DNA from: Mobula hypostoma
Lineage: Eukaryota
Direction: 5' to 3'
Assembly (NCBI RefSeq): GCF_963921235.1
Contig: NC_086108.1
Span: forward strand, 66,218,001 to 66,282,000
Length of the DNA: 64,000 nt
A program made the translations under genes and the position numbers. Below the pieces are notes generated by a model, which was not told the origin of the DNA, did not search any database, and saw only the letters and a program-made list of their open reading frames with translations. Positions 10,756 through 43,096 of the stretch are shown piece by piece (the first letter of the stretch is position 1; each line of letters starts with the position of its first letter).

Positions 10756-10859
10756 TAATTCTTTTAATCTTTGAAAGTGGAAAAGCTGTTACATTGGGGT
10801 AGTTTCACTGTCTTGATCTCAGAAGTCTGCTTCCAATGATACAATAAGTTACATAAACT

Positions 10860-11175
10860 AGGGTCTTGCATGGTTGCAGTGGATGACCATGATGTCTTCT
10901 GTACCTTGTCATGCCTTTCACTCTCCACAGAGCGTTGCAGTTTCACCTTTCTGGCTGTTGAATCTCACTGTAGATCTCATCCACCCAGACCGCCAGAGCT
11001 GACTCCACATGCTGGGACAGGCGCGTCCCTAACTCACCAGGTATGAGGCCACTGGCTACTCTCAGCTGGTTTAGCCCGTCTGTTAAAGCAGTGTACTGGG
11101 GTGTGGCTACTATAGCATGCAAACAGCTACTTGGAGGCACACGTGAGAGCCCTCCCTGAACACCCCATACACCTC
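10860..11175 (-). mobile_element. 5' part of a second copy of the non-coding retroposon at 37142-37845, including the HDV-like fold (~11060-11175)
   Basis: Shared blocks gcagtggatgacca, catgcaaacagctac, ggggtgtggc and acaccccatacac. Confidence 0.8.
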
Positions 11176-11349
11176 TGAATACAGCCAAATGAAACAGCAT
11201 TCCTCTGGGGCCAAGATGCAAAACACTGTACCAACAGTCATACACAGCGCAAGGCACATGTAGCTCATATAGGATAGCAGTAAACATACAGACACACACA
11301 AAAAAATTATAAGCCAAGTCCTTGAGCGCCATGTTCTGTAAATTCTTGC

Positions 11350-36430: not shown

Positions 36431-37186
36431 TGGCGTCTTTTTAGGAAACACCTCATAGGAACTGTAGCATTTTCTAACATTAAAATGGATGGCAACTCGC
36501 ATTGTAAATGTTGAAGGCGGTCTAATGAACTGCATAAAGCAATAAATAAATGTCATTTTGCCCTGACATCAAGAGCAATCTCAAACTAGAGTGAGGCATC
36601 TCCTGAAGGAAATCCCAATCCTTGCGAATTTAGTATTTTCAGGTCAGATTTGAATCTGACTTCTGAGATAAGGCCTTCATTAATGCACAATGAATTTAAA
36701 TCCATTCAAGGACGTGATTAGCAATATTCTGGAAGAGCTCAACGGGCCATGCAGTTTCTGTGGGAGGAAAGGATCTGTTGATCTTGCAGGTTGAAACCGT
36801 GCATCAGAACTGAGGGTGGAGGGGGGAGATTACCAGCACAAAGAGGAGGACAGCAGTGAAAAAAAGTGAAGTGATAAGTGGACTGAGGAGGTGTGTAAGA
36901 TGACAGGCAGGTAGTGGTAGGTAAGGGTGATGCATGAGGTGGATTTGGAAGACTGTGGCAGGTGAATGATGGACAGAGCCAGACAAGAAGGGAGAGGATA
37001 AAGAATAAAAACACATGGAGCAACGTGGAGGGAAGGAATTGTGAAGATAGGAGGCAGCTGCTGGAGGTAGATTAGGAGGAACACAAAGCTTACCAGGGCT
37101 GGCTTCCAGAGAAGTAAAGAAGGTGAGGGTGGGAACCATTAGGTTTGTCCATCATCATCGATGAAGACCTTGACACCATTAGTGCT

Positions 37187-37325
37187 TTTTTACGAGGTTG
37201 AGTTGCTAGCTCAACACTCAACCCAGCATGGATGGAAAGTGTGCCCGGGAGCGGTCCGACTAGATTCAAACTTGGGAATCTTCGCTCCAGAGTCTGGTGC
37301 AGATGTCACTGCACCACCAGCAGGC
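37187..37325 (-). mobile_element. Nested tRNA-derived SINE head, same family as 40907-41160
   Basis: Minus strand gcctgctggtggtgcagtgacatc (A box) and aagtttgaatc (B box), then catccatgctgggtt. Confidence 0.75.
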
Positions 37326-37652
37326 TTGATGGTGTCGAGACTAGTGCTTGATTTGGATTTAAGTGAGGGAGAGTTGCGCAGCATCAGCCTTACACTCTCT
37401 TCCCAATTCCCATCTGGATCCAGTGGCAAGACAAGAGTCGAGACGGCTGGAGATAGGACTAGGTGCAGTGGATGACCAGGACGTTTTCCGTGTCTTGTCG
37501 TGCTCTACACATTCCACGACGCTTGCAGAGACTGTCTTCTTGACCGTTAGACCTTCCATTGGTCTCGTCCGCTCAATCCACCGGAGTCTGTCTTCACATG
37601 CTGAGATAGACAACTCCCTATCTCACTGAGGGTTTGAGACCCATCGGCTCCC

Positions 37653-37844
37653 CTCACCTGGTTTAGTCGGCTTGTTGAAGCTGTTGCCCGGGGTGTGGCC
37701 GCTGTCACATGCAAACAGCTACAAGGAGCCACAGGTGAGAGCTGAGTACCAGGTGGGGACCAAAGGTGGACTAACTGCCCTGAAAAGGACGCAATATGTT
37801 CCCCCACCAGAGGTGCTACCCCTCCCTGACACCCCATACACTCC
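37653..37844 (-). ncRNA. Candidate HDV-like self-cleaving ribozyme at the element 5' end
   Basis: Manual fold: P1 GGGGTGT/ACACCCC, P2 CTCACCTG/CAGGTGAG, P3 GGC/GCC, L3 starting TCCTTG, GG after P1, P4 GCTT/AAGC, J4/2 aCtaa. Confidence 0.6.
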
Positions 37845-38464
37845 AGGGAACCATTAAGGAAGAGATTGAATGGCAGTTGGATTCAGATGGGGGATGGGTG
37901 GGAGGTTAAAAACTGTGTGCAGGAAGTGTGGTGTGAAGAGAGCCGATAGAGCCAATAGAGGGAAGGGGACAAAGGTAAGTGAAAGAGGGCTGAGAGAGCT
38001 TGAGGAAGGGGATACAAATGAGAGCACCAAAAGGTCAAAAAGCTTGGTGGAGGGCTGGAGGGAAAGGCAAAAAAAGCAAGGTGGGGGCTATCTAAAATCG
38101 GAAAACTCAATATTCATGGCATTGGGCTGTAGACTACCCAGGTGGAATATAAGCTGTTGCTCCTTCAGTTTGAGCGGGACTTCTCCTGTCCATGGATAGA
38201 CAGGTCAGTGTGGGAATGGGGAAAGGATTCAAAATGGTCTGCAACTGGCAGCTCGGGATGGCCGATGCAGACAGAATGTAGGTGTTCTATGTGTGATCTC
38301 TGACTCTGATGTAGCGGAGGCTATGTCAGGAGTACACAATGCTGTAGATGAGGTTGGAGGAGATCTATGTGAACCTTTGCCTCACCTGGAAGAAACATTT
38401 AGGTCTGTGAGAGGTGGTGAGGGAAAAAGTGTAAGAACAAGTGTTATAACAACCACAATATATC

Positions 38465-42915: not shown

Positions 42916-43096
42916 GGTTGATGGTTGGGTTAAGTTGTTCTTTCATCTTGCCAATTTACTTGCAAAAGTCTCATCACTATCCGTGGAGACATCAACAGTT
43001 AATTTTCAGCACACTGATGATGTCTCCTCGCATGGTAACGAAATGTTTGCAAGTAAATTGTCAAGAATGGAAAACAACTCAGCCCTACCATCAACC
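42916..43096. repeat. 83-bp inverted repeat made of two hammerhead-bearing pLTR-like arms of a second family
   Basis: Arms 42916-42998 and 43014-43096 with a 15-nt spacer. Plus arm reads CTGATGA-tgtctcctcgcatggtaac-GAAA-tg-TT-tgca. Confidence 0.75.

Follow-up and report, generated by a model that had tools for sequence, protein, structure and literature searches.

HDV-like ribozymes head R1, R2, R4, RTE, Ingi/L1Tc and LOA non-LTR retrotransposons (PMC5786205, PMC6765202), and HDV-type ribozymes are similarly placed in R2, RTE, L1Tc and other LINEs (PMC6765202, PMC4035085). Non-autonomous bipartite elements, including WALLSI3, RTESINE2, Bov-A, NARTc, RIME and the R2 SIDEs, hold only the 5' and 3' ends of a LINE, have no ORF, and carry target site duplications (TSDs) and a microsatellite tail (PMC5786205). 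Ribozyme-headed LINEs and their two-ended derivatives are already known. For HDV-type ribozymes, the residues and contacts named as essential are G1-Y, U20-G25, P1.1 and C75 (PMC6326823, PMC13635239). In the RNArobo descriptors, L3 is fixed at 7-8 nt (TYYHCG N0-1 Y) and J1/2 at 51 nt or less (PMC4870747 and its supplement). In drz-Agam-2-1, a structured J1/2 together with an extended P2 speeds cleavage (PMC4908430).

We analyzed a 64,000-nt stretch of the Mobula hypostoma genome (the window), on the minus strand of which a sequence-only reading had placed all HDV elements in canonical order at the 5' end of a non-coding retroposon. Upon checking the sequence, we found all of the named segments in place (Table 1), together with a T separating P2 from P3, an AC separating J4/2 from P2' and a G separating the hairpin from P3', which were absent from that reading. 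The proposed HDV-like fold agrees with the presence of all core residues and with the predicted ability of every helix to form in the nested double pseudoknot order P1-P2-P3-P1.1-P4; by folding, P2 is extendable to 10-11 bp in this copy, and the long self-pairing J1/2 is a 96-nt domain closed by a 10-bp helix. Using a custom-made, relaxed HDV descriptor that allows an L3 of up to 46 nt on both strands, we obtained 1 match in the real window and 0 in 200 dinucleotide-shuffled windows; since this descriptor was drafted with the motif already known, the result shows only that the arrangement is uncommon by chance. The overall folding energy was ordinary (z of -0.80 for the window copy and -0.92 for a consensus-like copy), as expected because the pseudoknot cannot be scored. 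Descriptors with a short L3 had been anticipated to miss this motif, and our results agree with this: Rfam gave 0 matches at gathering scores in the window and, elsewhere in 37100-37950, a chance match with an E value of 5.4, and the motif would escape the published descriptor twice over, because its L3 is 26-28 nt instead of 7-8 nt and its J1/2 is 96 nt instead of at most 51 nt.

Table 1. Coordinates of the candidate ribozyme and of the element that carries it (window numbering)
Feature	Position	Strand	Basis or remark
Putative HDV-like ribozyme fold (P1, J1/2 domain, P2, P3, L3 with hairpin, P1.1, P4, J4/2)	37651..37844	-	worn copy
Outer heptamer, P1 5' strand; predicted G1 at 37844	37838..37844	-	copy 5' ends and compensatory P1 pairs
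Inner heptamer; predicted partner 37753-37744 inside J1/2	37829..37835	-	folding; no two-sided change with P1'
J1/2 domain, 96 nt, closed by 10-bp helix P1.2	37742..37837	-	folding
P2 5' strand (10 bp, 37741-37732) and single T ahead of P3	37731..37741	-	
P3 5' strand (37730-37728) and L3 core (start, 37727-37720)	37720..37730	-	
Equivalents of U20, C21, C22 and G25	37727, 37726, 37725, 37722	-	L3 core
L3 insert: 5-6-bp hairpin (37719-37701) with CAYG-containing loop, and one linker purine	37700..37719	-	
P3'; P1'; GG of P1.1; J1.1/4 GCAA	37699-37697; 37696-37690; 37689-37688; 37687-37684	-	
P4	37668..37683	-	folding; two pairs with two-sided change
J4/2 C-T-A-A, C75 equivalent at 37666	37663..37666	-	
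AC (two bases), then P2' strand (37660-37651)	37651..37662	-	
5' TSD copy, 11 bp	37846..37856	-	one extra T before 37844
3' TSD copy, 11 bp	37131..37141	-	
Remainder of LINE-derived 5' UTR	37326..37650	-	family A nt 1-522 vs L276, 91%
tRNA-like, SINE-like insert at junction, ~144 bp, subfamily-defining	37182..37325	-	
LINE-derived 3' UTR, stop codon to GGAC.AAC end	37143..37181	-	family A nt 519-564 vs L276 3' end, 87%

The motif resembles the genomic HDV and CPEB3 ribozymes in the order of P1, P2, P3, P1.1 and P4 and in U20-G25 and C75, and genomic HDV also in the J1.1/4 stretch, whereas L3 is 7-8 nt and J1/2 is short in those ribozymes (PMC6326823, PMC13635239). With drz-Agam-2-1, it shares a large base-paired J1/2 (P1.2) on short linkers and an extended P2 of 12 bp there and 10-12 bp here (PMC4908430), but it differs in having an L3 of 26-28 nt with a hairpin and a duplicated P1 5' strand of which the inner copy is predicted to close P1.2. 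Like the HDV-like ribozymes that head LINEs, it lies at the exact LINE 5' end and is predicted to release the element from host read-through transcripts.

The candidate ribozyme heads a 702-bp non-coding element on the minus strand that is bounded by an 11-bp TSD; the heptamer GGAGTGT was rightly recognized as lying near the TSD-defined 5' end, from which one extra T separates it. First-look motif candidates numbered 3,667 in the 3.5-Gb genome, and most close copies of the family to which the window copy belongs (family A) are 559 bp long, with TSDs and a tail of the (AAC)n type. Of the 64 matches from a pattern scan of metagenomes, 4 homologues (L158, L161, L185 and L212) were retained by BLAST similarity and the other 60 were dropped as chance matches. 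Two of the four, L158 and L185, are complete LINEs, each with a single ~1,100-aa frame containing APE and RT domains, and their proteins led to the full-length elements of the host, such as L276, which has a 1109-aa open frame with APE and RT domains that is 62% identical to that of L158. Family A corresponds to the first 522 nt of L276 (91% identity) joined to its last 46 nt (87%), and it also has the other traits of bipartite LINEs, namely TSDs, a short-repeat 3' tail and 5'-truncated copies (8 of 28 without the 5' region). Family A is, therefore, a bipartite non-autonomous LINE that arose by internal deletion and has no ORF, and its full-length form carries the same predicted ribozyme fold. 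Thus, the location at the 5' end of a non-coding element was correctly assigned, while the description of this element as merely a retroposon was not. Three further host families (B, C and D) carry the same predicted fold, and we note that 10775-11182 of the window (minus strand) holds an older, internally deleted family B copy with the same core and L3 hairpin.

The subfamily in the window departs from the known bipartite LINEs in that a tRNA-like insert lies between the two parts instead of forming a 5' head. This insert is common to at least 40 copies, as all 40 scored matches span 244-251 of the 251 query bases. We take it to resemble the A and B boxes of tRNA genes; ARAGORN found no tRNA in it. 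By eye, its 3' part resembles the 5' UTR of a DUF6451-bearing LINE family; LINE families of that kind were considered as the partner and rejected.

We take the partner LINE to be of the RTE type, going by protein motifs and 3' ends as we know them from that clade. Pfam identified a single ORF with APE and RT and no RNase H in L158, L185 and L276, as in the RTE clade; because Vingi has the same ORF layout (PMC13708176), this layout cannot separate RTE from Vingi. The relatives carried no clade names. Pattern scans of viral contigs gave 10 matches and 1 match with no homologue among them, and protein scans for further loci gave none in viral contigs and one, without a 5' end, in genome contigs. 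The 30 copies obtained in a search by 3' end included no coding ones. Among the related LINEs of this genome, the commonest (L216-L245, e.g., L220 and L294) is ~75% identical to nt 233-506 of family A and has the same 3' end, and it is without the ribozyme. Its 5' ends are of at least two kinds and are GC rich (67-74%) and CpG rich (observed/expected ratio of 0.67-0.94), and it is possible that the ribozyme was swapped for a promoter in this LINE.

In family A, the two LINE-derived parts meet in the loop of a hairpin, in which 37339-37329 of the window pairs with 37181-37170. In full-length elements, the same two segments lie 3.5 kb apart and are complementary with differing sequences. In L276 (nt 505) and L158 (nt 501), this pairing consists of 10 perfect pairs and is the longest match in each element; L294 has only 7 pairs, and L185 has no match that reaches 7. 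In a free-energy scan, the 5'-3' UTR helix ranked first in none of the four full-length elements.

Identity between the four host families is 98-100% in the 44-nt ribozyme core, compared with 67-76% in the next 200 nt downstream and 71-88% in J1/2. G1, U20, C21, C22, G25, G38, G39, C75, A77 and A78 are in the majority sequence of all four families, while positions 23, 24 and 76 are variable. The first six L3 bases fit TYYHCG in families A and C and in L161, L185 and L212, and do not fit it in families B and D (both of which depart at position 24), L158 and the window copy. J4/2 conforms to CNRA, being CTAA in families A, B and C and the four outside sequences and CCAA in family D. In an alignment of 13 copies, 92.6% of the cells were paired and 6 of 39 pairs displayed two-sided change; none of 500 shuffles scored as high and slid controls reached 38-48% paired, with the reservation that related sequences can exceed a shuffle control without structure. 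P1.1 (C21-G39 and C22-G38) was 96% paired in this alignment, and the majority sequence of every family has the predicted U20-G25 partners. When drawn with the outer heptamer, P1 starts with G1-C37 and has 7 bp in families A, B and D and 6 bp in family C; pair 7 was unpaired in 4 of the 13 rows. The covariation on which the sequence-only reading had staked its fold was seen for P1, P1.2, P4 and one pair of the L3 hairpin, and in these places only; in P1, it stems from three single outside sequences, one of which is 5' truncated. Among the 13 aligned copies, P2 and P3 had no two-sided change, and for the four outside homologues, the search pattern had fixed part of P2 and P3 as well as G25, A31 and the GG.

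The element begins with two heptamers 9 nt apart, which are identical to each other in families A, B, C and D and L185. The R2 ribozymes similarly have two tandem P1 candidates with one preferred (PMC3774820), but the R2 duplication derives from 28S target DNA, while here, a 9-nt repeat lies inside the element and its inner copy has a fixed partner in J1/2. The sequence-only reading had assigned the P1 5' strand to the inner heptamer at 37835-37829. To locate the start of family A, we used 28 distinct copies picked by 3' end only. Besides the eight copies without the 5' region, 13 had the whole outer heptamer, 5 were missing its first 1-4 bases and 2 were missing all of it; beyond the heptamer, these 20 copies had nothing in common upstream apart from a T at -1 and a single partial additional repeat. 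The 5' ends of the copies thus cluster, as had been anticipated, but at the outer G1 and not at the inner one. Moreover, one P1' base is changed in L158 and a matching change is present in the outer heptamer only (-9.5 kcal/mol for the outer and -3.1 for the inner heptamer), and in L161 and L212, another P1 pair is changed on both sides, such that two-sided change affects 2 of 7 P1 pairs with the outer heptamer (pairs 2 and 5) and 0 of 7 with the inner. In each of the 8 sequences folded, the inner heptamer belonged to the closing helix of J1/2, with pairing probabilities of 0.90-0.99 for 6 of its 7 bases, and the outer register was favored by ~12 kcal/mol in the family A majority sequence, the gap being 8.6 in family C and 8.1 in family D. 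Based on the copy 5' ends, the compensatory P1 pairs and folding, we place G1 at 37844, and the predicted cut is likely just before it, 9 bases upstream of the earlier placement.

The base at -1 was a G in 8 of 101 full-length copies. Such a G is expected from the copying of a cap. By contrast, T was at -1 in 70 of the 101 copies and in all families, at a flank T frequency of 0.30-0.42; this T is mostly the last TSD base and sometimes an extra one, and its excess could mean that the template starts one base earlier. For genomic HDV, cleavage is fastest with U at -1 (PMC1874588). The thymine signature described for RTE concerns the first base of the TSD (PMC6007223), and we rejected it as the cause of the T at -1. 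In family C (L357-L385), the 5' end holds the 9-nt repeat once, twice or three times in tandem depending on the copy; this points to slippage of the 5' junction or to cuts at either of the repeats.

The copy in the window is worn: over 200 nt, it departs from the family majority at 12 positions, and 11 of these changes are C>T or G>A. The private change G3A causes an A-C mismatch at P1 pair 3, P4 with a G>A mismatch has -1.9 kcal/mol compared to -8.2 in the family majority, and the copy also carries C24T. Judged by these changes, the window copy is probably the relic of a weak or dead ribozyme.

The hairpin that had been described as inserted in L3 follows G25-U/A26-A27, and with its linker, it comprises 18, 19 or 20 nt, giving a total L3 of 26-28 nt. 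A 5-6-bp stem formed in all 8 sequences folded, across every length change. The hairpin is kept in the four host families and in all four outside homologues, although the scan pattern allowed 1-31 nt at this place. Exact core matches in the genome comprised 2,260 with a long L3 and 3 with a short L3, while reversed controls gave 0. The outer 4 bp of the stem are nearly invariant with no two-sided change; covariation is confined to the pair that closes CAUG and to a single row of the 13. In the available text of the literature on HDV-like ribozymes (including PMC10879173, PMC9901934, PMC1874588, PMC13708176 and PMC6007223), we found no L3 hairpin, nor any mention of one for the ribozymes heading LINEs; Webb 2009, Webb and Luptak 2011 and Weinberg 2015 could already show one, as could the predicted RTE structures of Ruminski 2011. 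The L3 helix is apparently undescribed, and its novelty is provisional. L3 holds the U20-G25 pair and half of P1.1, and a natural conserved helix at this position would widen the known fold. With 2,260 or more exact core matches in this genome, it would also imply that thousands of self-cleaving motifs in vertebrate genomes have gone uncounted, and a widely used ribozyme would gain a new position open to engineering. RTE-type elements are under development as gene-insertion tools (PMC13708176), for which 5' end processing matters.

Altogether, we consider it likely that the 5' end of this two-ended non-coding LINE derivative folds as an HDV-type ribozyme that would cut before G1 (37844), with the extra L3 hairpin likely outside the active site. 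According to this model, a host transcript would read through a copy of the element, and the J1/2 domain would hold the inner heptamer in P1.2, leaving the outer heptamer free for P1, and set P1 beside the extended P2, as in drz-Agam-2. With C75 acting as the general acid, the cut would free a unit-length RNA with a 5'-OH. The APE- and RT-containing protein of the partner would then bind the shared 3' UTR, and the copy would be inserted by target-primed reverse transcription. The hairpin would project from the end of L3, past the U20-G25 pair, and is most likely conserved as a peripheral helix with a part in folding or in docking of the LINE protein. More tentatively, and with considerable doubt, the motif may represent a widespread sub-class of HDV-like ribozymes with a fifth helix in L3. 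This sub-class would stand at the head of a large LINE lineage of animals (1,493 related proteins at E <= 1e-200 among 7,980 scored) and would go unseen by Rfam and by the published descriptors; the helix would enable or gate cleavage (e.g., via the element protein), and where a lineage has lost the ribozyme, a CpG-rich, promoter-like 5' end would take its place.

The position and the occurrence of the cut can each be read differently. That an active ribozyme cuts at the inner heptamer (37835), the outer one being a later duplication, would fit the identity of the heptamers in families A, B, C and D and L185, the 15 of 28 family C copies that begin at about the inner repeat, and the model for R2 in which P1 strands are duplicated and either site is usable (PMC3774820). 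Helix strength was rejected as the reason for the inner starts in family C, as the gap between registers is no smaller there than in the mostly outer-starting family D (a family whose query was biased toward full 5' ends). Also, the two registers are nearly equal on paper in the window copy (sums of -43.4 and -42.6 kcal/mol), and this is because of its private G3A. Against the inner cut, 18 of 20 family A copies keep the outer heptamer wholly or in part, which an RNA cut at the inner heptamer could not template, and the changed P1' of L158 is matched by its outer heptamer alone; we therefore regard cutting at the inner site as very improbable. A fold derived from a ribozyme that cuts poorly or not at all seems unlikely to us, if less remote. 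Here, the L3 hairpin or a 5-bp P3 would block the active site, an internal Pol II promoter would set the 5' ends, and the structure would be kept for protein binding, stability or translation. A precedent is the dual Pr77/L1TcRz, in which the first 77 nt of L1Tc are both promoter and ribozyme (PMC3383444), and such an extended P3, which borrows P1 and P2 bases, was the minimum-energy fold in 2 of the 8 sequences (family B and L185); the T excess at -1 points the same way. However, variation at positions 23, 24 and 76 contrasts with conservation of the catalytic and P1.1 residues, P1' covaries with the first 7 nt across a distance of 150 nt, and G at -1 is rare, all of which argue against this reading.

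With regard to the hairpin, the main rival to a helix with a function is a ribozyme active at G1 whose hairpin has come down from one ancestor as a neutral passenger, which would alter the proposed mechanism in this last step only. The little covariation in the hairpin, the variation in insert length between 18 and 20 nt, and the origin of all sequences examined from one lineage are in agreement with a passenger. Conversely, the insert is 80-100% identical between the host families compared with 67-76% for the downstream UTR, the stem survives every length change, and the three short-L3 copies represent three different deletions in old family B copies and not a spreading subfamily; we conclude that a passenger is possible and the less favored of the two readings. 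The loop could instead be a self-complementary kissing loop that dimerizes the RNA, similar to L3 in crystals of the CPEB3 ribozyme (10.1101/2022.09.22.508989). Its hexamer is palindromic in families A, B and C and in L158, L161, L185 and L212, with both ends changed in L158, but it is not palindromic in the family D majority sequence, and the change in L158 is also accounted for by an intramolecular pair that closes a CAYG tetraloop. We have mostly rejected dimerization on these grounds and give it little credence.

Two other features were noted. A separate LINE family (L131 1757-4925, minus strand, as well as L133, L134 and L149) has an intact 1018-aa frame with APE, RT and DUF6451; its four copies share about the same start and a structured-looking 5' end that does not fit the HDV descriptor and is perhaps another ribozyme class. 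Finally, 42916-43096 of the window is an 84-bp inverted repeat that is 79% complementary and has a 13-nt spacer.
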